Assembly: GCA_000442015.1 (NCBI GenBank)
Contig: KE560757.1
Location: 1-56,601 of the forward strand
Length of the DNA: 56,601 nucleotides
Reading direction: 5' to 3'
Source: Rozella allomycis CSF55
Taxonomy: Eukaryota
Program-made: the position numbers and the translations under genes
In this document: positions 31,074 to 50,641 of the stretch, one piece after another
Layout of the letters: the number at the start of each line of letters is the position of its first letter
Position numbering within the stretch: the first letter of the stretch is position 1
The notes under the pieces: generated by a model
Told to the model about the DNA's origin: nothing
Database searches by the model: none
The model's input: the letters and a program-made list of their open reading frames with translations, nothing else

Positions 31074-32440
31074 TCAACGCCTTTTTTTATTGTACTTTTT
31101 TTGGATTGTTTCTAGGTAGTCATCGCATTTCTTAAAAATTGATAAGAAATGTTCATATTCCTTTAATTGTGCTGAAAACATTTTACTTGGGCTACAAAAG
31201 TTTCATTTAAACATTCATTAAAAATTTCATTTCTATTTTCTTCATTGACCCAAGCGCGGGCTTTCTTTACAGAATTTTTGAATTTGGAATCAGTTTTTGA
31301 TAAATGGTAAATTCTCTCGACTAATCGACCAAGCAATACAAATAAATAATGCGATAATTTATGATAAAGTAATGCTCGTTGATTACAATAGCGATCGACT
31401 AGAAAATTTGCTCTCACTTTTCCTAGATTGGGTTCAGTCTTAATTTCTTCATATTCAGCTTGGCCTCTTTCAAGAGCTTCATTATCTGAAATTTCATCAT
31501 CTGTAGCTACGATATCTGAACAATCCGAGTCGTCAAATTCTTCAGCTTCAATATTTAAAAATTCATTCTCTCTTTCTGACAATTCTTCTTCTGATATATC
31601 AGTATCATCATCTTGATTATTTTCTTGTACGCTAAATTTGTCTTCTAGTAATTTTATGAGCCTCTTTTTTCTCTGAAGGATCTTTAAATACAAAATTTAC
31701 CTTAAAAGAAAAGGTGCTGTAAGGAGTCCCTTTGAGATTTAAATGATATCTGATCAGACGCTTTTTATGACAGCATTCACATTTAGAATCTTTCTGTAGA
31801 TAAACATCAGTATCAGACAATGTCAAATCTTCGATCCGTGGAAATAATTCCAGGGCTGCTTTAAATCTCTTCGACCATCGATCAGAAGATAGCATATTTT
31901 TATAATCTTCTATTTTCATTTTAATTTTATCGTAAGGAATCGAAAAATAGACATCCCTCCCATTTTTTAAAACTGAATTTAAGAAAGTATTGTCTAAAAT
32001 ATGCGACACCAACATTTGTAATGTAATTTGGAAATAGTACTTTTCACTTTGCGGTTTAACTATTTGAAACGCTGGTGTAGTTTCTTTTTAAACTATATAA
32101 TCTTTTGGATACCTGGTTCTTCATTTTCAACAACGAAACCTTTCAAGTCTTCATCCCAATTAGAATCTTCAGACGACGATTCGCTATCAGATCTATATTC
32201 AAATTTTGGTAAATGTTACAAATTTATTGATNTATTCAAATTTTGGCTAATGTTACAAATTTATTGATTTTCTTGGTCCTTTTTGCCGCTCTACGTTAAC
32301 AACTCATCCAGATCTTACTCATAACTAAACTCTGGAGTTTCTTGGACTTTGAAAGTCTATTTCAAATCTCCACTTAAATTTTACTTGGTTTCTTTCTTTA
32401 CTTGTTCCTCATCATCATCAGAAGAAACAATTCTTTTCAT
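31074..32440 (-). CDS. DUF4211/CCDC82-like protein, paralog 1
   Basis: 'SSDRWSKRFKAALELFP...KCECCHKKRLIRYHLNLKGTPY' and 'FLVDRYCNQRALLYHKLSHY'. Confidence 0.7.
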
Positions 32441-41069: not shown

Positions 41070-43324
41070 ATGAATAAAAAATCAAAAGCTGAAAGTTTGT
41101 TGGAAAATCTCCCACATCTTCAGAATTTGATTAAGAGAGATCCTATTTCATACAAGGAAGAATTTTTGCAACAGATGACACATTTTGAATCTTCGCTTTC
41201 TATTTTTCAATTGAATCCTACCAAAGAAGATGATCATTTTTCGTCTCTTGTGTCATTTCTTGGTCACGTAACAGTAGTGTTTTAGTTTAAATAGGTTGTT
41301 GGATGTTATCCTGAACATGCCAAAGATTATCCAAAAAAATTAATGGACGTTTTGAATCAGCATTATTTGGTTTTGAACTCCACTGTGCGTAAATCTATTG
41401 TTCAGTCTTTGACATTGTTAAGAAAACATGATGCGATTTCTTCTTTGGAGTAATTTTATTGCAATTGTGTTATGAGATTATTGGAATTGTTTTTTAAACT
41501 GTTTAGATGCAAAGACCAAGCTTTGAGAGAATATATTTATAATTATATTATTACAGACATCAAAGCAGCTAATTCAAAAGCCAAGAATAACAAGTTGAAC
41601 AAGACGTTACAAAATTTTATGTATCAAATGTTGTCTGATTCATGTCGTGTAGCAGCAAAGAAATCAATCGATATAATGATTGAATTGTACAAGAAAAATA
41701 TTTGGTAATTTTTAACTGAAGATTTTATGTAGGAATGATCAAAAGACTGTGAACGTGATTGCCGAAGCATGTTCAAGTAACGACTTGAAGTTGGTTGCTA
41801 CTGCGCTTAACTTTTTTCTGGGTCATGATCAAGAAGAAGAGGAGGAAGATGAAGTAATTTATTTTCAATATCTAGAGTTTAGGATATCCCTGACATTAGC
41901 AGCATTCAACATTCGAAAACTGTCGGAGGAAAAACAAGAGCCAAGGAGACAAAGTTGAAAAGAGCTAAGGCTATTGTTAGAAGAAAGAAGAATAAGGATT
42001 CCAAAGTAGAAGTTTTTAATTTTTCGGCGATCCATTTGTTGAATGATCCTCAAGGGTTTACTGAAAAGTTGTTTTCCAAACTTAGAGATTCACCAAAATC
42101 TCTTCCTTTTGAGATGAAAATAATGGTTATGAATGTGATTTCCAGAGTTATTGGGATTCACAAGTTGACACTTTTGTCTTTTTATCCATTTTTGTTTAAC
42201 TATTTGAATCCACATCAGCAAGAAGTTACTTTAATTTTAACATTTGCAGCCCAATCAACTCATGAGCTCATTCCACCCGAGGACATTGAGGCGATGGTTA
42301 AAACTATTGCTAATAATTTTGTTGCTGATCACTGCGCACCTGAAGTCATTACTGTGGGTCTAAATTCTATTAGAGAAATATGTTCTAGAAATCCATTGGC
42401 AATGAATTCTGATCTTTTAAAAGATTTAACAGAATACAAAGATTACAAGAACAAGGGTGTTGTAATGGCTGCTAGATCGTTAATTCAATTATTCCGAGAT
42501 AAAAATCCAGAATTGCTTCATCGTAGAGAGAGAGGAAAGTTTGTTTCAGAAAATATGAAAGAATTTAAGAAATTACAGTTTGGTGAATCTTTAGCTCTGG
42601 AATCTCTTCCTGGAGTTCAAGTAATTTTTTGATTAATTATCATAAAGTCCTTATTGAAGGAAGAAGAAAATGAAAAAGATTGGGATGAATGGGAAATTGA
42701 AGAAGATGAAGAAGAGAGTGAAGGTGAATGGATCGATATGCCACAAGATGAAGACATTAAATTTGATGATGAAGAAGATGCTGAAATGACTGAAGAAATG
42801 ATTCAAGAAGAAAAAGATTTGAAAACTAAAACGGCTGAATTTCTTCAAACTAAAATTTTGACACCCCAAGATTTTGCGAAAATGAAACAAACAGAAGAAC
42901 AAGATTTAGCTGAAAGAATGGCAGGTGTTAAAAAGTCAAAGAAGAGATCAGCAGACGCCATGAATGAAAATGATGAACTTGTCAACGTTAAAGACATTGA
43001 AGGTTACCAAAAGAGAGCTAAACAAACTTATGAAGAAAGAATGGAATCCATCAAAGTAAAAATAAAATTCATTTTTAATTTTAGGCTGGACGAGAAGGCA
43101 GAGAAAAGTTTGGTTCCAGAAAAGGTAAAAAGGATAAAGAATGCAGCTCTACAAATCGTGAAAAACAAAAAAAGAAAAACTTTCTTATGGTCGCTCACAA
43201 AAAAGAAATTAAAGGAAAATCTAAACTCAAACTTAGAGATAAACAAGTAAAATATTAAATCAATTCAAAAACTTAGCGTTTACTTCGTGAGCATCACATT
43301 CGTCAGAAAATGAAGCGAAAATAA
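41070..43324 (+). CDS. SDA1: Protein SDA1 (60S biogenesis)
   Basis: '[20 protein letters not shown]', '[20 protein letters not shown]', '[14 protein letters not shown]', '[15 protein letters not shown]'. Seven mini-introns. Confidence 0.96.
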
Positions 43325-43368: not shown

Positions 43369-43870
43369 TTAGAATTCATCATTCTTTCTTCCAAACTTCA
43401 TTATCAGCGCACTTTTATAATCTCGAATAAGTTTAATTACCTTAATGTGATCAAAACGTTCTCTACAATTAAAGCTGTACCAGGCGCTGCATTGTTCTTA
43501 TTCTGAAACTCTACAATCATAATCCACACGGATGATATCAATCCACCAAGAATCAATAACATAGTAATTATCAAACAAAATATTCGTGCATTTCGAGTGG
43601 TACTATCGTATGAACTAAATCCATCATCATTCAACACATCCAGTGAAAGTGCATTGATTCTTTTATTCCAAACTCTAATTCTTACAGTATCAAGCCAATA
43701 GTGCTAATAATTCCAGGTATCCAGTGCCCAAAATATATTCCCTTCATATTAACATTTGCATCTATCCACACCCAAAGTGCTATACCAAACTATGGAATTT
43801 TAAATTTAAAAGTTACCAAAATACCACTAATATGTGATACTATCATATTTCTACTGTCTTCTAAGCCCAT
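43369..43870 (-). CDS. VPS68: Vps68/TMEM50 family protein
   Basis: 'SHISGIL|FGIALWVWIDA...HWIPGIISTIGLIL|INALS'. Three mini-introns. Confidence 0.85.
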
Positions 43871-44095
43871 TCTGATTCTCGTAGAGGTGGCTCAGCACTC
43901 TAATCTTGAAATGCACGATAAAAAGTAATTATATACTATGCTATAGGATAACTCCCGTCTTACATTGGAAATCTAAATGATGAAATCTATAGACTTNGCA
44001 TTAAAAGTCTAAATGATAAAATCTATAGACTTGCACTATGAAGACGTACATTGTAGGCTGCGTGGCTTGGCGTTCTAATCTATCTAATCGGGGTT

Positions 44096-45194
44096 ATGAC
44101 ACTAGATCAAAATCCTTCTACCCCGAACGATGAGGCATCAATATGGCCGGAAGATGTTGAAATGGCATTCCATGAAGCATTAGCACTGTATCCTCCAATT
44201 GGACGAAGAAAACTCTTGGAAGAAGGCAAGATGTATGGTAGCGAATATCTTTTTTAATAACAGGGAGGAACGAATTAGTTGCAAAGTACATTGAGAAAAA
44301 GACAGACAAGGTGAGATCAAGAAAGCAGGTATCCAGTCACATCCAAGTTTTGAATAAAAAGAAGAAGAAACTTGAAAGCAGATTAGTAAGCAATGAAACG
44401 AAAAGGTTTAAAGGGGCTGGGAACTGATGATGACTTTCGATGCGGTCCATTTTTTGATTCAACGCTCTTTACGTCGTTTCCATTTCACATAAAGAATACA
44501 GAGTTTAGTTATGTTGCATATGATCAAATGGATATGAATCAGGTAATTAATTAATATATTACAAATTGAAACATGTATTCTTTTCACTCACTATGAATTC
44601 GTATCCAGACACTATCAATGAATACATTGACATTGATTTTTGTCAATATAGATTTCCCGGATTGAAAGAATTAAAAGATATTGGCCATCCAAGTGTATTC
44701 TATCATAGCATAATTAATGTAATTTCTCTATTTTAGTGCAAAAGGTCAATACAGATCTACCGCGGAAAACGTCACAGTGGAAATTTAATTTGAAATGCCG
44801 ATTTGATTCTACAGAGAGTTTTACATCAAGATGTTGGACACTGGTATTTTCGTTCGGCAAAACAATAATTGATAAAAAGCAGGTCGTCCAGAGTATAAAG
44901 TGTAAAGATGGTTATACATTTTGCTTTGACCATAANTGTAAAGACGGTTATACATTTTGCTTTGACCATAATCCATTATGCCAGTTTGTAGAATCTCTAA
45001 CAAATGAAATGATTGGGTTGCAGTCTATTGATTTACAACAAAATGTTCTCGACAATATTTCAGTTTTACAGGTTCATAAATGAATTTTCTATTAATAGAT
45101 CGTCTATGACATGAATCAAGAAACAATTCTGTATTGCAATGCAATAATATTTCAAATTGACAATCATTATAACAAGATACTGAAAATTAAATAA
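44096..45194 (+). CDS. TEA/TEAD transcription factor with C-terminal YAP-binding-domain-like region
   Basis: TEA: 'IWPEDVEMAFHEALALYPPIGRRKLLEEGKMYG|RNELVAKYI...RSRKQVSSHIQVL'. C-terminus: 'FPGLKEL', 'VFSFGKTIIDK', 'NPLCQF', 'NVLDNISVLQ|IV'. Five introns; about 309 aa after removing the 36-nt N-duplication. Confidence 0.9.
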
Positions 45195-48100
45195 AATTTA
45201 TTTTATGGCCAAGATTGAATTTTTCCATTTCTATAAATAAGAGTTCCATTCTTTCATGCAACGGCTTCAAATCATTAGAAACAAAATCGCCGTGAATTTT
45301 TAGAGATCTTTTTATAATTTCTAAATGCTCGTCTATTAAAGAATTTAGGTTTTTTAATTCTGTGAGATTGCTTGGTGAAGCCTTAAAGGCCTCGTGAAAC
45401 TTTCTAATACCACCATTCACAGCTGCGTCTATAGCTCCATTTAATGCCATTGTAAAAGGATTAGATACACTTTTAGAAATATTTGTCTTTTTTGCTAGTA
45501 ATGCCAAATCACGAGATTTTGAGTAGATTATATTACATGCATTTTTAATTGGACTTAAATGGATACTTTGAATACCTTTTATACTACATGTGGAAACAAA
45601 AGAAGGAAAAGAACGTTCCGATGTTATACAAATCCTCTCAGCAAATAAATTCGAGTATTCATTTATTTCCTCATTCACAGATTTAATAATTGGAATGTCA
45701 AAGAAGAAACAATCAATATTACTATTTTCAGTGTGCTTCCTTGTAAATTCTGGATAGTCTGAATCAATAATAGGCAATAGCGGAGAGCTTTGGGAAAGAT
45801 CAATCTCCACTTTCTTTACTTGAATATTCATATGATCATCATTTTTAATTTTATTGTCAATCAATTCATTGTTTTTCATTAATTTCGCGGACTGAAATTT
45901 GTTTTGAATTTTCTCTGTAAATGATGAAATCTTCTCAAATAAAGCCGCTTGATAAATGAATTGTTTATTTCGAAAGAAAATTGGAAATCTCATGCCATAA
46001 AATGCGACTCGGTAATAATCTGGATAAAAGCGCTCGACTGTTGCTAATTTACGATACAATTTGGCTTGTATCTCTAGAATATCGGCTAATTTTATAAAAT
46101 TCATGTTATTTTTTAGGACTAGAGAATATTCATCGCATAATTCTATGGCCTTTTCCCATTCATTTCCTTTATCAAAGTAATCGATAATAATATCATAAAT
46201 TTTGCACTTTCTGGTAAAGCTAGATTCTTTGGGATAATCATTAAATGGCTCTAAATACGTATTTGGATCCCAATCAATCATTTTGGCATGTTCATAAAGG
46301 GCAAATGCGGCTTGAGACCAATTCGAAGCTTTTACGTGGCAATCAATAATTTTGTACAAGTAGCTTACATATTTATCAATTAATCCATTTTCTAGATACA
46401 TTTGCATTATTACAGACATGGCAAAACATCTCTCACTATCAAAATCAATACTTTGTGGAATGGAATGCAGACTATTTAATAAATCATTGAACTGCATCAT
46501 TTCTTTAGCGAATGATGCCACCTTAGAGTCTTTAGAGTTGTATAGACTATTGAAGAATGAAGAATATTGAATATCGTCCTTGTCAATCACTTGCAGTACA
46601 ATATTCCTTATTGATTTTATATCAATAGAGGATAAAATATGATTAAATATTGAAATTCCGAAATCAGAGATTGTAGATGACTTGTTGGAGCATAGTATAA
46701 TCGTTGGTTCCACAAACTCTAATGAAACCCTTGTTTGGCATTTAGCCCATATCTTTTCCAACAAATTAATAACATCATTTTCTATTTTCTGAATCATTTC
46801 ACGGTATTCGATATTCAGAAGTCTATAATCTTTGTGAAATGATTGTTGAGATAGGATAGTTGTCAAAAGAATGAAGCATTGCTCCAAGTGCAATTCCTTT
46901 TCATATGAAAAGAAGATGAATTTGAATACGATTTGGTGAATGCTGTTATAAAGAGATACCCAGTTAGATTTGAAGACATTAGACGTGAATATTGTATTAA
47001 AAACATGAAACAGTTTAGGAATAAATAGAATAGGGATTTCTTCGCCTTTTAAATTCTGAACAATCTTTAAAGTAAAAAGGTAATGATTGGAAGAAATGTT
47101 TAGGCCGATTATTTTTTCAAGTAGCGGGAAACAGTTTTCAATGAAAAAAGATTTATCAGTTTGTAATATAGAATTCAAAAGGGAAACCAGGAGATTTGGA
47201 ATGTCTTGACCTATTTGAATGTTCGTTTCAAAAAGGGAATTAACTTTGTTACAAATTTGGTTCATGACAGATTTATTATTAAGAGTTTCATTTTGAATTA
47301 TTTTTATAAAAAACAAAATTACGTGATTGGAGGAATCATTTCTGTTTACGGGCAACGATTTAATGAACGAGCATAGATGGTTGACCCTTGTAGTAAATAA
47401 ATCAAGAGAGGAATAAAAACTAACAATTATTGAATTTTTAATATTAATGTCTAAAGAATCATTGTGCATTAATTGGATTAGAGAATTTAGGAAATTATTG
47501 ATAGTAAAATCTAAATAGTCACTTTGCGTAGAATTTTTGATTAATAAAAGAAAATATTTAAAGCACAAGGTGATTTCTTTGAATTCTTGAAACTCTGAAT
47601 GATTTTCTATTATTATTGTCAATGATTGGACTATGAATGGAATAACTTTGGAGTGATTGAAATGATTTAAATAATTTTGAAGAATATTTTCGTCTTTATC
47701 AAATTCCATGATTGTGTTTAAAGTGAAAATTAAAGCGTTTAAACTTGAAAGTTGAACTTGGCTGAGCAATTTTAGATCTGATGACCCAGCCACAGTAGAT
47801 CTTTGTTTACTTTTGAAAGAATAATCGAAAATTTCAAATAAGCAATTTAAAGAATTTTCATGAAATAAAATTAAATCCATTTTTGGAACTTTTAGAAAGT
47901 TTGATAGAATCGAAGTAAGTCTTAAAGTGAATTTACGATTATTCCAATCTAAAAGATCTGAAAGATTTTCATTGTGAGTGAATCTATTAGAAAGAAAAAA
48001 AGATGAAACTTGAACATAATCACGTGAAAAGGTTAATTTTGCCTTGTTAGATCTTCCAGTTGAATTTTGTGAATTTACAGATTTATTATCTTCAAATGAA

Positions 48101-49863
48101 GCTTTTGATTTTGAATCATCGAAAGAGAAACGAGAATCAAAAGATTCAAGATCTGAAATAGGAGAATTTATTAAATTTGAAGAAACGTTTAAAGAATTTG
48201 TTGAATTTGAATGAAATGATTGATAAATTGAATGATGATTTAAAACTTCATTGTTGTAACGATAAAGAGGCAACGTATGATGTTTATTCTCAACGAGAAC
48301 TTTTAAATTTTGTTTGTTCAAAGGGAAAATTGCAAAAGCGAAATTCTTTAATTCAGAATCATTAGAAGAACAATGTTTAAAAGTTAGAAATAAATAACAA
48401 GAAAAAATAAATTCATTTTTCAATTTAACGCAAACGGTTTCATTCCAATTTGGACTATTGTTGTGGTATTGAACAGAAGAATAGTAAACAGATTCTAATT
48501 TTTCATTCACTTTAAAACAATTATCTATAAAACTTCCATCTTCTCTTCTTAATTGAATCGTCACTAGAATATTTTTATTTCCAGATTTATGACCCTGGTT
48601 AAATTCTCCAAAGTTTAATTCAAAAAATAATTCATTAATTTCAGTTTTATTAAAGAGATTAAAAATGTCAATTTTATCTTTAATTATTAAACTAGTTTCT
48701 GGAATCTCTTTATTTAATTCATCATCTTTTTCAATTCCAATGCAAATATACTCAACTTTACTATCTTTCTCAATAGATAGATTAGAATAACTATTTATTA
48801 AATCCTCATGAATTAATCCAAAATTATTTTCTCCCAAATTAAATATTTTCATAAATCCTTCTTGGCTCTCACTCTTTATCTGCAAAACTGCAACACCAAA
48901 AGGTCGCTTCATTTTTATTTCATTAATAGATTTTAAGTTCTCAAATGATCTCAAACTCATCATTGACGATCTTTTATTCTTCAAACTAAAATCTTCTTCA
49001 ATCATTTTCCCATATCTGTAAATATGACACACTAGAAATATGGTTCCATTCAAAACATCATTTCTCTTTACATTCATAAATCTAGTCTTAACATTTCCTA
49101 TCTTTCTTTCATCTATTGGCATTCCATACATAGTCAATGGTACCAGAAAATTATCTGAAATATATTCCTTTAATCTAGTATCATACAATCTGAAATTCAA
49201 ATAACTCATCTCTTCTGGTCCACAAATACTAGCAACACACGCTTTAAAATTTAATATTAAATTTATAAACTGGCTCTGATGCTCTTCTCGCCCTATTATC
49301 TCTTCTTTTACTATTAAAGGATTTATCGAATTGTATTCTGTAAAAATTTTCTCGACGTCTTCACTCTCATTTGCTACTATAGGCAATTCTAGTAATCTAT
49401 TCCCTTCTTTTATTAATTCAATCAAACGAAGAATGGCATCTTTATTGTGTTTTTCACTTATAAGCAATTCCTTCAATTCTTTTATCTCTTTGGTCAAATC
49501 CAAAATTCTAGAAAAATTTTCATATTCTCTATTCATTATACTAGTCTTTACTTTTTGAGACCACAGAAACAGTATTGGGGCAATTTCATTCAGTAACTTT
49601 TCCCTCACATCAATGCCACCTTCCAGACTAGAAAATGTTAAAAACTCATAACGCTTAATCACGGAACACGGAAAAATTCCCACTTTCCTTGTCAATACAT
49701 CAATTCCTCTAAACCAGCCGCTCCCGTGCCTCTCAATTACCACCACAAAGTCTCCAACATCAAGCGCCATTTGATATTTCGAACTGTCCAATGTTGATTC
49801 TACAGGATTAAATGGACACACTACTTTTCCCAAATATGGCTCTTCCAATAATGTCCAATTCAT
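45187..49863 (-). CDS. DOCK-family Rac GEF (SH3, DHR1/C2, DHR2; DOCK1-5-like)
   Basis: SH3 'GWFRG...VGIFP', C2 'YHNNSPNWNET', DHR2 'YYRVAFYGMRFP...LNGAIDAAVNGGI'. Likely start is MNWTLL at 49863. Confidence 0.92.
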   Translation of the reverse strand: MNWTLLEEPYLGKVVCPFNPVESTLDSSKYQMALDVGDFVVVIERHGSGWFRGIDVLTRKVGIFPCSVIKRYEFLTFSSLEGGIDVREKLLNEIAPILFLWSQKVKTSIMNREYENFSRILDLTKEIKELKELLISEKHNKDAILRLIELIKEGNRLLELPIVANESEDVEKIFTEYNSINPLIVKEEIIGREEHQSQFINLILNFKACVASICGPEEMSYLNFRLYDTRLKEYISDNFLVPLTMYGMPIDERKIGNVKTRFMNVKRNDVLNGTIFLVCHIYRYGKMIEEDFSLKNKRSSMMSLRSFENLKSINEIKMKRPFGVAVLQIKSESQEGFMKIFNLGENNFGLIHEDLINSYSNLSIEKDSKVEYICIGIEKDDELNKEIPETSLIIKDKIDIFNLFNKTEINELFFELNFGEFNQGHKSGNKNILVTIQLRREDGSFIDNCFKVNEKLESVYYSSVQYHNNSPNWNETVCVKLKNEFIFSCYLFLTFKHCSSNDSELKNFAFAIFPLNKQNLKVLVENKHHTLPLYRYNNEVLNHHSIYQSFHSNSTNSLNVSSNLINSPISDLESFDSRFSFDDSKSKASFEDNKSVNSQNSTGRSNKAKLTFSRDYVQVSSFFLSNRFTHNENLSDLLDWNNRKFTLRLTSILSNFLKVPKMDLILFHENSLNCLFEIFDYSFKSKQRSTVAGSSDLKLLSQVQLSSLNALIFTLNTIMEFDKDENILQNYLNHFNHSKVIPFIVQSLTIIIENHSEFQEFKEITLCFKYFLLLIKNSTQSDYLDFTINNFLNSLIQLMHNDSLDINIKNSIIVSFYSSLDLFTTRVNHLCSFIKSLPVNRNDSSNHVILFFIKIIQNETLNNKSVMNQICNKVNSLFETNIQIGQDIPNLLVSLLNSILQTDKSFFIENCFPLLEKIIGLNISSNHYLFTLKIVQNLKGEEIPILFIPKLFHVFNTIFTSNVFKSNWVSLYNSIHQIVFKFIFFSYEKELHLEQCFILLTTILSQQSFHKDYRLLNIEYREMIQKIENDVINLLEKIWAKCQTRVSLEFVEPTIILCSNKSSTISDFGISIFNHILSSIDIKSIRNIVLQVIDKDDIQYSSFFNSLYNSKDSKVASFAKEMMQFNDLLNSLHSIPQSIDFDSERCFAMSVIMQMYLENGLIDKYVSYLYKIIDCHVKASNWSQAAFALYEHAKMIDWDPNTYLEPFNDYPKESSFTRKCKIYDIIIDYFDKGNEWEKAIELCDEYSLVLKNNMNFIKLADILEIQAKLYRKLATVERFYPDYYRVAFYGMRFPIFFRNKQFIYQAALFEKISSFTEKIQNKFQSAKLMKNNELIDNKIKNDDHMNIQVKKVEIDLSQSSPLLPIIDSDYPEFTRKHTENSNIDCFFFDIPIIKSVNEEINEYSNLFAERICITSERSFPSFVSTCSIKGIQSIHLSPIKNACNIIYSKSRDLALLAKKTNISKSVSNPFTMALNGAIDAAVNGGIRKFHEAFKASPSNLTELKNLNSLIDEHLEIIKRSLKIHGDFVSNDLKPLHERMELLFIEMEKFNLGHKINFI

Positions 49864-50044
49864 GTCAATTGTCAATTTGTGGCTTACAGCAGCATCATTA
49901 AACGTGAAATTAAATATGGTAAAAATAAAATTCCAAAATACTTTCCGAATCATCAACATTATCATTATACCGTTTTCGTAATTTATGAAATATTTTGTCA
50001 CTTTATCCGAAAACGTGTCACACTCGGTCAAGCCATCACACCAG

Positions 50045-50641
50045 ATGAAACTTGCATTCGTTCCATCCGTACTGCTCCTTGTGACTGCTGCATCTGCAAA
50101 CTTTCTGCAAAATCCTTTGTCTGTTAGCATCATCAATCTCGAATCTCAGAAACGAAAAGATCCAGAGCAGGGTACTACGGTGACTCTTGCCCCGCATCTT
50201 TCATGCACACATCCATGGCTCACTTATAAAGTTTTAGAAAAGGGAGCACACGATAGTCAAAGATTTTCATTCAATTTGCATCCTTTCAAAGATCAGATCT
50301 TCAAAATCAGCGACATCAATGGAAAATATTTATCACTGCACTCTTCTCTTTCCGAAAGTCTTGTATTGTGCCATGGCGAAGAAAAGGATGGCGAATTTTT
50401 CAAGTTTATTCCAATCGAAGTAAAAGACGGAAAACATATCGGATTTCTGGCTACCAAAAATAACAAACTGTTATACAAGGGATTAAACGGATGGATGATG
50501 GCGATGGAAAAATCAGAATGGGAAATTGATAATATGAATTGCAATGAAAGCCATCGCGGTCATTTAAAGTTCTGCTTTGAAATCAGTTATCAATCAAGAA
50601 AAGTGACAAAGAAAGTTAGATTTAAAGATGTCATTGAATAA
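50045..50641 (+). CDS. Secreted protein, possible beta-trefoil (fascin/ricin-B-like)
   Basis: Signal peptide 'MKLAFVPSVLLLVTAASA', then 'FKISDINGKYLSL...EFFKF...FLATKNNKLL'. Confidence 0.55.
   Translation: MKLAFVPSVLLLVTAASANFLQNPLSVSIINLESQKRKDPEQGTTVTLAPHLSCTHPWLTYKVLEKGAHDSQRFSFNLHPFKDQIFKISDINGKYLSLHSSLSESLVLCHGEEKDGEFFKFIPIEVKDGKHIGFLATKNNKLLYKGLNGWMMAMEKSEWEIDNMNCNESHRGHLKFCFEISYQSRKVTKKVRFKDVIE

Follow-up and report, generated by a model that had tools for sequence, protein, structure and literature searches.

A TEAD-type TEA factor in Rozella allomycis and a revised, six-exon model of its gene

The stretch of DNA examined here (the window) is contig KE560757.1 of Rozella allomycis CSF55, a parasite from an early-diverging fungal lineage, 56,601 nucleotides (nt) long. 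Positions 44096-45194 of its forward strand, from an ATG at 44096 to a TAA stop codon at 45192-45194, hold a gene for a TEA transcription factor whose C-terminal part resembles the YAP-binding domain (YBD) of animal TEAD proteins. In the best model that could be drawn up, the gene would consist of six exons and five introns of 26-28 nt and encode about 309 amino acids (aa). The TEA and YBD parts are on the same strand, collinear, and linked by 26-28-nt introns, and both are present in the public protein for this locus (a 232-aa NCBI/UniRef model, P0001); they are predicted to form one polypeptide, TEA first. Profile matches, together with a predicted fold, have shown the product, as modelled, to be a TEA factor with a true TEAD-type YBD.

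Exon 1 (44096-44237) carries the start codon and the first half of the TEA domain (Pfam TEA, 2.5e-08 on 44096-44236); its translation is the N-terminus of the public protein, and its last base opens a Gly codon split by intron 1 (44238-44263; 26 nt, GT..AG). Exon 2 (44264-44385) holds the second half of the domain (GRNELVAKYI...RKQVSSHIQVL; Pfam TEA, 3.3e-13 on 44266-44385) and a Lys-rich tail, and is followed by intron 2 (44386-44413; 28 nt, GT..AG), the sole canonical choice that stays in frame. The linker and first YBD strand (..TEFSYVAYDQ..) are in exon 3 (44414-44542), also present in the public protein. Intron 3 (44543-44568; 26 nt) opens with GTAA, has stops in all three frames, and leaves the reading frame exactly preserved on removal; it ends in TG, the one non-canonical acceptor of the gene (one had been noted in the original prediction). 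Exon 4 (44569-44718), with YBD strands KHVFFSL..YRFPGLKELKDIGHPSVFYHSIIN, is absent from the public model, and its placement here is based on a profile match of 14.3 bits (profile positions 44-92). Intron 4 (44719-44744; 26 nt, canonical GT..AG) shares its acceptor with the public model. The YBD core is in exon 5 (44745-45071), which matches Pfam YBD at 2.8e-13 (50.5 bits on 44736-45071, cut-off 23) and Scalloped and TEAD4 YBD chains in the PDB at 1e-07 to 1e-06. Within it are the Lys codon of an SFGK motif (44859-44861) and the Cys codon of an NPLC motif, a TGC at 44979-44981 just where it had been predicted, which aligns with the sole invariant column of holozoan YBDs. Intron 5 (45072-45098; 27 nt, GT..AG) is read through in the public model to a stop at 45081-45083, and exon 6 (45099-45194), with the last YBD strands IVYDMNQETILYCNAIIFQIDNHYNKILKIK and the stop codon TAA, is likewise absent there (5.1 bits, profile 196-218). 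All six motif pairs previously proposed as collinear with TEAD1 are present in the translation.

The outer YBD exons were located with a profile (length 232) of the C-terminal 235 residues of 23 named TEADs from holozoans, which was run over all 44 stop-to-stop segments in the three forward frames of 44000-45300. The three top-scoring segments were collinear on both DNA and profile: 44551-44733 (14.3 bits, profile 44-92), 44718-45080 (53.1 bits, profile 107-196), and 45099-45191 (5.1 bits, profile 196-218), the last directly adjoining the second on the profile. The exon-4 score was reached by 0 of 1000 shuffles (shuffle maximum 6.0 bits), and the exon-6 score by 2 of 1000. Submitted singly to Pfam, 44414-44542 and 44569-44718 were without any family, and 45099-45191 gave only a sub-threshold chance match. 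Among spliced variants, the rebuilt public exon structure scored 60.6 bits over profile 106-196 of 232 (the public protein itself, 60.2 bits), and the public structure with exon 6 added scored 77.1 bits, a gain of about 16 bits. The six-exon version with the canonical 26-nt intron 4 reached 101.0 bits over profile 31-217 of 232, its alignment beginning in exon 3 (profile position 31) and passing ungapped through the exon 4/5 junction. Because this is the highest profile score among the spliced variants, the six-exon, 309-aa model is preferred. Two other forms of intron 4, a 44-nt GT..AG intron (90.3 bits) and a 17-nt GT..TA intron (97.7 bits), were set aside for their lower scores. The second of these is the junction of the original prediction, whose hand-splicing therefore stands as regards the extra exons but not as regards the join of exons 4 and 5: ..IIN followed by VQKVNTDL needs the 17-nt intron, whereas the canonical one gives ..IIN followed by VNTDL at the higher score.

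The gene had been thought to escape annotation, which is not the case. A search with exon 5 returned a single match, the 232-aa public protein under the name “TEA/ATTS domain-containing protein” (88% identity over 100% of the query, the gap to 100% being an N-flanked duplicate described below), and the precomputed Pfam list of this protein already includes both PF01285 and PF17725. The public model omits exons 4 and 6, splicing 44542 to 44745 across a 202-nt intron and then reading through to the stop at 45081-45083. One possibility is that it is correct as it stands: 44569-44718 would be intronic, and the protein would end in VLQVHK with a partial YBD. Its splice sites are canonical GT-AG throughout, and it is the version held in NCBI/UniRef. 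Set against this are its score of 60.6 rather than 101.0 bits, its coverage of just profile 106-196, and the fact that the segments it omits match the missing parts of the profile in order, at shuffle frequencies of 0/1000 and 2/1000; its 202-nt intron is also atypical, because the other introns here and in the neighboring SDA1 gene have in-frame GT-AG solutions of 26-29 nt. It is thus quite improbable that the shorter protein is the right one. The public gene model of the Rozella TEA protein is incomplete, and a correction is warranted.

Inside exon 5, the 35 nt at 44901-44935 are repeated at 44937-44971, with 1 mismatch, around a single N at 44936, so that the N-duplication described earlier is real; duplicate and N together (44901-44936) form an in-frame scaffold-joint artefact of 12 codons. 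That these 36 nt are genuine coding sequence was rejected because of the fall in profile score on retaining them in the best version (from 101.0 to 91.9 bits) and the repetition across an N. A similar direct duplicate (36 nt, 2 mismatches) is found at the N at 32232, and an offset repeat of about 25 nt at the N at 43997; five further single Ns are without such a repeat. The N-flanked duplicates look like unmerged contig overlaps, able to corrupt gene models (here by adding 12 codons).

The TG acceptor of intron 3 could be either a one-base assembly error or a case of real non-canonical splicing, the former being plausible because joint artefacts are visible nearby; when all in-frame GT-AG introns were enumerated, none was found to link exon 3 to exon 4. 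Another explanation is that the locus is a decaying gene or pseudogene with TEAD-like exons, in which case the lack of an AG acceptor would be a symptom of decay. No relative was found by tblastn among 591 pattern matches in metagenome contigs, so there is no close relative for comparing splice sites or showing purifying selection. However, all six exons are open, four of the five introns are canonical at 26-28 nt, the frame is exact after removal of the 26-nt intron 3, 19 of 34 strongly conserved columns are matched, and the joint artefacts near the locus make a one-base error plausible. A decaying gene is accordingly considered unlikely.

The assignment of both domains can be made from the public protein. 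Pfam TEA (PF01285) matches it at 9.4e-28 (96.8 bits, profile 2-67 of 68) and Pfam YBD (PF17725) at 3.3e-16 (60.1 bits against a cut-off of 23, profile 81-169 of 201 only), in agreement with the predicted order of a TEA domain followed by an animal-type TEAD YBD. Among PDB sequences, its TEA domain matches TEAD4 and TEAD1 chains at 8e-26 to 2.8e-24 (TEAD4 5gzb_A at 8e-26), and its YBD matches Scalloped (1.1e-07), TEAD4 (about 9e-07), TEAD2 and TEAD1 (both about 1e-05), and TEAD3 (1.1e-04). An AlphaFold2 model from a 48-row alignment had a mean predicted local distance difference test (pLDDT) value of 78.3, with block means of 85-95 over approximately residues 151-232. When it was compared with the PDB by Foldseek, the matches listed, down to rank 50, were all TEAD or Scalloped chains at probability 1.00, with 89-94 aligned columns and a root-mean-square deviation of 2.3-2.9 Å in the YBD rows (rank 29 is instead a TEA domain with DNA); the expected structural match to the TEAD YBD was thus found with the truncated public protein. 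A protein Atlas model of residues 92-232 matched TEF-1/TEF-5 clusters at template modelling (TM) scores of 0.65 and 0.58.

MAFFT was used to align the corrected C-terminal part with the YBDs of 25 named holozoans. Identity between Rozella and five of these is 23-28% over 190-201 aligned residues, and of the 34 columns with at least 85% conservation among the 25, Rozella matches 19. The only column fully invariant among the 25 is the Cys of S-P-x-C, which Rozella retains as N-P-L-C. We take this column to be the TEAD acyl-acceptor Cys, and the Lys of F-G-K to be a neighboring acylation site; acylation of TEADs at both was reportedly described by Chan and by Noland, each in 2016. Covalent acylation of TEAD3 and TEAD4 is confirmed by the titles of PDB entries, which also name Lys344 as an acylated residue. 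A residue census was made over 223 fetched proteins with a YBD match across the Cys/Lys region, divided by score into a holozoan-like group (at least 100 bits) and a Mucoromycota-like group (below 65 bits). Cys was found in 197/197 holozoan-like and 0/24 Mucoromycota-like proteins, and Lys in 159/197 and 3/24; Rozella has both, which upholds the earlier claim that the palmitoylation-site Cys is kept. Two further proteins that scored between the groups both have the Cys.

The residues that line the YAP omega-loop pocket, according to the original prediction, are the Trp of an FWAD motif and a C-terminal Tyr. Both columns are at least 85% conserved in the 25 holozoans and both are Asn in Rozella in the MAFFT alignment, as had been expected. 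With hmmalign, Val rather than Asn is placed at the Trp column; since Trp is absent under either placement, Rozella can be said to lack it. The YAP helix groove would involve some seven positions in the pair of helices that follow the Cys, and at these Rozella has mostly hydrophobic residues, with Glu replacing Lys. Compared with animal TEAD1-4 and Drosophila Scalloped, then, the protein is alike in its TEA domain with a C-terminal YBD, YBD fold, P-x-C Cys, and SFGK Lys; it differs in its low YBD identity, in its Asn residues at the Trp and Tyr columns, in a shorter loop before the last strand, and in its size of about 309 aa with a very short linker.

Where else does this combination of domains occur? 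In two word-indexed searches, PF17725 was present in 51/111 and 115/120 proteins among the matches listed, and the matches that were named or could be resolved from codes were animals or unicellular holozoans, with Rozella as the sole exception (the EukProt codes “Ihof,” “Clim,” “Colp12,” and “Opistho-1” were read as holozoans). An exhaustive phmmer search gave 1523 proteins at E of 0.001 or less, of which the best 150 were used. Among these, the top-scoring YBD relatives of Rozella were Sd/TEAD proteins of unicellular holozoans (P0247 at 82.3 bits, Diaphanoeca at 76.5, Amoebidium at 76.1). Such proteins (from Monosiga brevicollis, choanoflagellates, Amoebidium, and others) share the architecture and the Cys, and differ from Rozella in keeping the Trp and Tyr columns; according to a passage in Coste et al. 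(2016; PMC4761220), they belong to lineages with Yorkie. Four proteins with the highest non-self phmmer scores among the matches listed (P0245, P0112, P0113, P0116) were dropped as close relatives, having no YBD. These are tandem-TEA proteins of 566-715 aa, with two TEA domains in the first three and three in P0116. Three fish proteins (P0309, P0318, P0348) combine DENN domains with TEA and YBD, and are probably read-through models of neighboring genes.

The phmmer matches also included, among those listed, a group of proteins of 450-840 aa with a weak YBD match (29-62 bits on the holozoan profile). All ten of the divergent matches that were looked up are TEA proteins of Mucoromycota, 393-841 aa in length and with long linkers: Mortierella alpina (three proteins), Podila horticola, Modicella reniformis, Dissophora ornata, Cunninghamella echinulata, Choanephora cucurbitarum, Spinellus fusiger, and Circinella minor. 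All ten are above the Pfam YBD cut-off (26.8-45.0 bits against 23). In their YBDs (P0172, P0147, P0191, P0178, P0203, P0214, P0155, P0144, P0161, P0228) the S-P-x-C-E-Y motif is replaced by a conserved F/Y-V-N-Q-F-F (FVNQFF-type), and the F-G-K Lys is mostly absent. The alignments thus point to a lineage-wide loss of the putative acyl site in Mucoromycota with the domain retained. Like the Rozella protein, those of Mucoromycota are TEA factors of fungi whose YBD is significant in Pfam, and they share its side of the tree (below); unlike it, they are without the Cys (0/24), nearly always without the Lys (3/24), and far from both the holozoan YBDs and Rozella. By phmmer, the Rozella YBD scores at most 82.3 bits to holozoan YBDs, as against 14.8-41.0 to Mucoromycota-like ones, and among the fungal YBDs sampled it is, in these comparisons, the most animal-like and alone in having both Cys and Lys.

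Rozella is thus not alone among fungi in having a YBD in a TEA factor, and routine annotation does detect such domains. The novelty claimed for it is weakened because ten of ten Mucoromycota proteins pass the Pfam YBD cut-off, and the public Rozella entry already has both domains; what survives of that claim is the Cys of Rozella, found in none of the 24 Mucoromycota-like proteins. No publication on a YBD in Rozella or other fungi was found, but the 2012 Sd study and its supplements may show fungal Sd architectures. As for Dikarya, Tec1 and AbaA share the TEA/ATTS DNA-binding domain, as is known for the family; the original prediction had them lacking the YBD. An Atlas model of residues 92-232 of the public Rozella protein matched an Ascomycota “Transcription activator Tec1p” cluster with a TM score of 0.53 (104 residues aligned), short of the threshold at which a family would be named; this is a weak lead to the opposite, hinting that the C-terminal region of Dikarya Tec1 might keep a YBD-like fold. 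An Atlas query with a Mucoromycota YBD (residues 480-693 of P0172), made to follow it, gave no usable match.

The presence of a YBD in Mucoromycota as well is consistent with the earlier suggestion that the fold predates the animal-fungal split. A quick maximum-likelihood analysis of 405 columns placed 26 proteins (Rozella, 9 from Mucoromycota, 16 from holozoans) in a tree that sets Mucoromycota and Holozoa each apart from all the rest by a branch with full support. Rozella, entered as a 312-aa form of the model, has a very long branch (3.28) arising at the base, where the tree is unresolved, and a best identity of 39% to any row; in the best tree it is on one side of a branch with the 9 Mucoromycota (support 58), and no starred clade of the 26-protein tree unites it with any holozoan.

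The surroundings of the gene are an ordinary nuclear neighborhood. Upstream is a homologue of SDA1 (41883-43250, forward strand), whose introns (in-frame, GT-AG) measure 27 (or 33) and 29 nt; downstream, on the reverse strand at 45190-50145, is a 1652-aa intron-free open reading frame (ORF) for a DOCK180-type exchange factor, a DOCK-type guanine nucleotide exchange factor (GEF), with SH3, DOCK_N, DOCK-C2, and DHR-2 domains. The GC content around the TEA gene is 0.32. The minus strand at 43437-43789, in the interval that separates SDA1 from the TEA gene, has short hydrophobic ORFs that may be exons of a small membrane protein.

Another possible origin for an animal-like gene in such a place would be contamination, or a recent transfer from a holozoan, and the higher phmmer scores of the Rozella YBD to holozoan than to Mucoromycota-like YBDs could be taken in that sense. 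The gene is, however, inside a 56.6-kb AT-rich contig, between the SDA1 and DOCK genes and with tiny introns like those nearby, and in the tree Rozella falls on the fungal side, joined to no holozoan by a starred clade and no more than 39% identical to any row; a foreign origin is extremely unlikely. Vertical descent from an opisthokont ancestor would fit, because of both the placement in the tree and the native gene context. It would also fit the summary of Sebe-Pedros 2012 in a passage of Coste et al. (2016; PMC4761220), which traces Sd back to the ancestor shared by amoebozoans, fungi, and animals, and Yki only to the holozoan ancestor, with Sd reported lost in chytrids. Since Yki is placed there in the holozoan ancestor, YAP/Yki is not expected in fungi, at least on the strength of that passage. 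Passages in two other papers are in keeping with this: one reports finding no protein outside metazoans that combines WW domains with a metazoan-type TEAD-binding domain (Mesrouze et al., 2020; PMC7784741), and the other assigns a complete pair of Yorkie and Scalloped to Corallochytrium (Chen et al., 2020; PMC7035326).

Taken together, these observations make it probable that the locus is the Rozella orthologue of the TEAD/Scalloped family: a six-exon gene, vertically inherited, for a protein with a TEA domain and a complete YBD-type beta-sandwich that docks a cofactor. Several points weigh against this reading or parts of it. Intron 3 ends in TG and has no canonical substitute that would keep the frame, so that the join of exons 3 and 4 is unproven and the gene may be damaged; the splicing as a whole is predicted from genomic DNA; and exons 3, 4, and 6 have no Pfam match of their own, being backed by a profile built for this analysis. 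The evidence on fold comes from the truncated public protein, the 309-aa protein having been assessed by HMMER and MAFFT only. In the tree, support for the fungal grouping is only 58, long branches meet, and the variant used was not the final model. Acylation is suggested by two residues only, and the YBD fold can clearly exist without the Cys, because the Mucoromycota YBDs lack it.

If the orthologue reading is right, the protein would be a sequence-specific transcription factor that binds DNA through its N-terminal TEA domain. MCAT-type DNA sites are those of the TEA family, and the Rozella domain would be expected to bind them as well. The YBD would be a docking platform for a transcriptional cofactor, and, because the pocket Trp and Tyr are both replaced by Asn, this cofactor would probably be something other than a YAP-type omega-loop ligand; it might instead use the helix-binding groove made up by the pair of helices that follow the Cys, a groove still largely hydrophobic in character. 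The Cys may take up a fatty acyl chain that is seated in the core of the YBD and stabilizes the domain, as in animal TEADs, an analogy to which we would give slightly less than an even chance.

Possibilities for the role of the Cys/Lys pair diverge from this point. One is that the pair is ancestral to opisthokonts and older than YAP, Rozella alone among the sampled fungi having an acylation-competent, lipid-stabilized or lipid-sensing factor with a non-YAP cofactor; Mucoromycota would then have kept the YBD and lost the Cys, and they, perhaps with Dikarya, would have lost the lipid site. This can be put forward only tentatively. Another, also rather doubtful and the chief rival as to function, is that the YBD docks a cofactor without a lipid, as it must do in Mucoromycota, and that the Rozella Cys is an ancestral leftover without an acyl role. 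The Mucoromycota-like YBDs, with Cys in 0/24 and Lys in 3/24, are conserved and pass Pfam all the same, which speaks in its favor. It is harder to reconcile with the retention in Rozella of P-x-C, of its Cys, and of the Lys of SFGK at just 23-28% identity, and with the Cys being the only invariant column across the 25 holozoans.

No new kind of system is revealed here. The Rozella TEAD is of modest novelty, a better-modelled member of a known family, with the twist that a Cys lost in Mucoromycota is kept. TEAD acylation and the YBD are nonetheless heavily studied as drug targets, and are regarded as linked to YAP/TAZ and as belonging to animals, or at most to holozoans. A fungal TEAD in which the Cys/Lys pair persists and the omega-loop pocket is missing would offer a direct test of whether lipid binding preceded YAP binding, and its YBD, as a natural “YAP-free” one, could be used in seeking ancestral cofactors. 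Rozella with the Cys and Mucoromycota without it, both in the same domain, would make a ready-made comparative pair.

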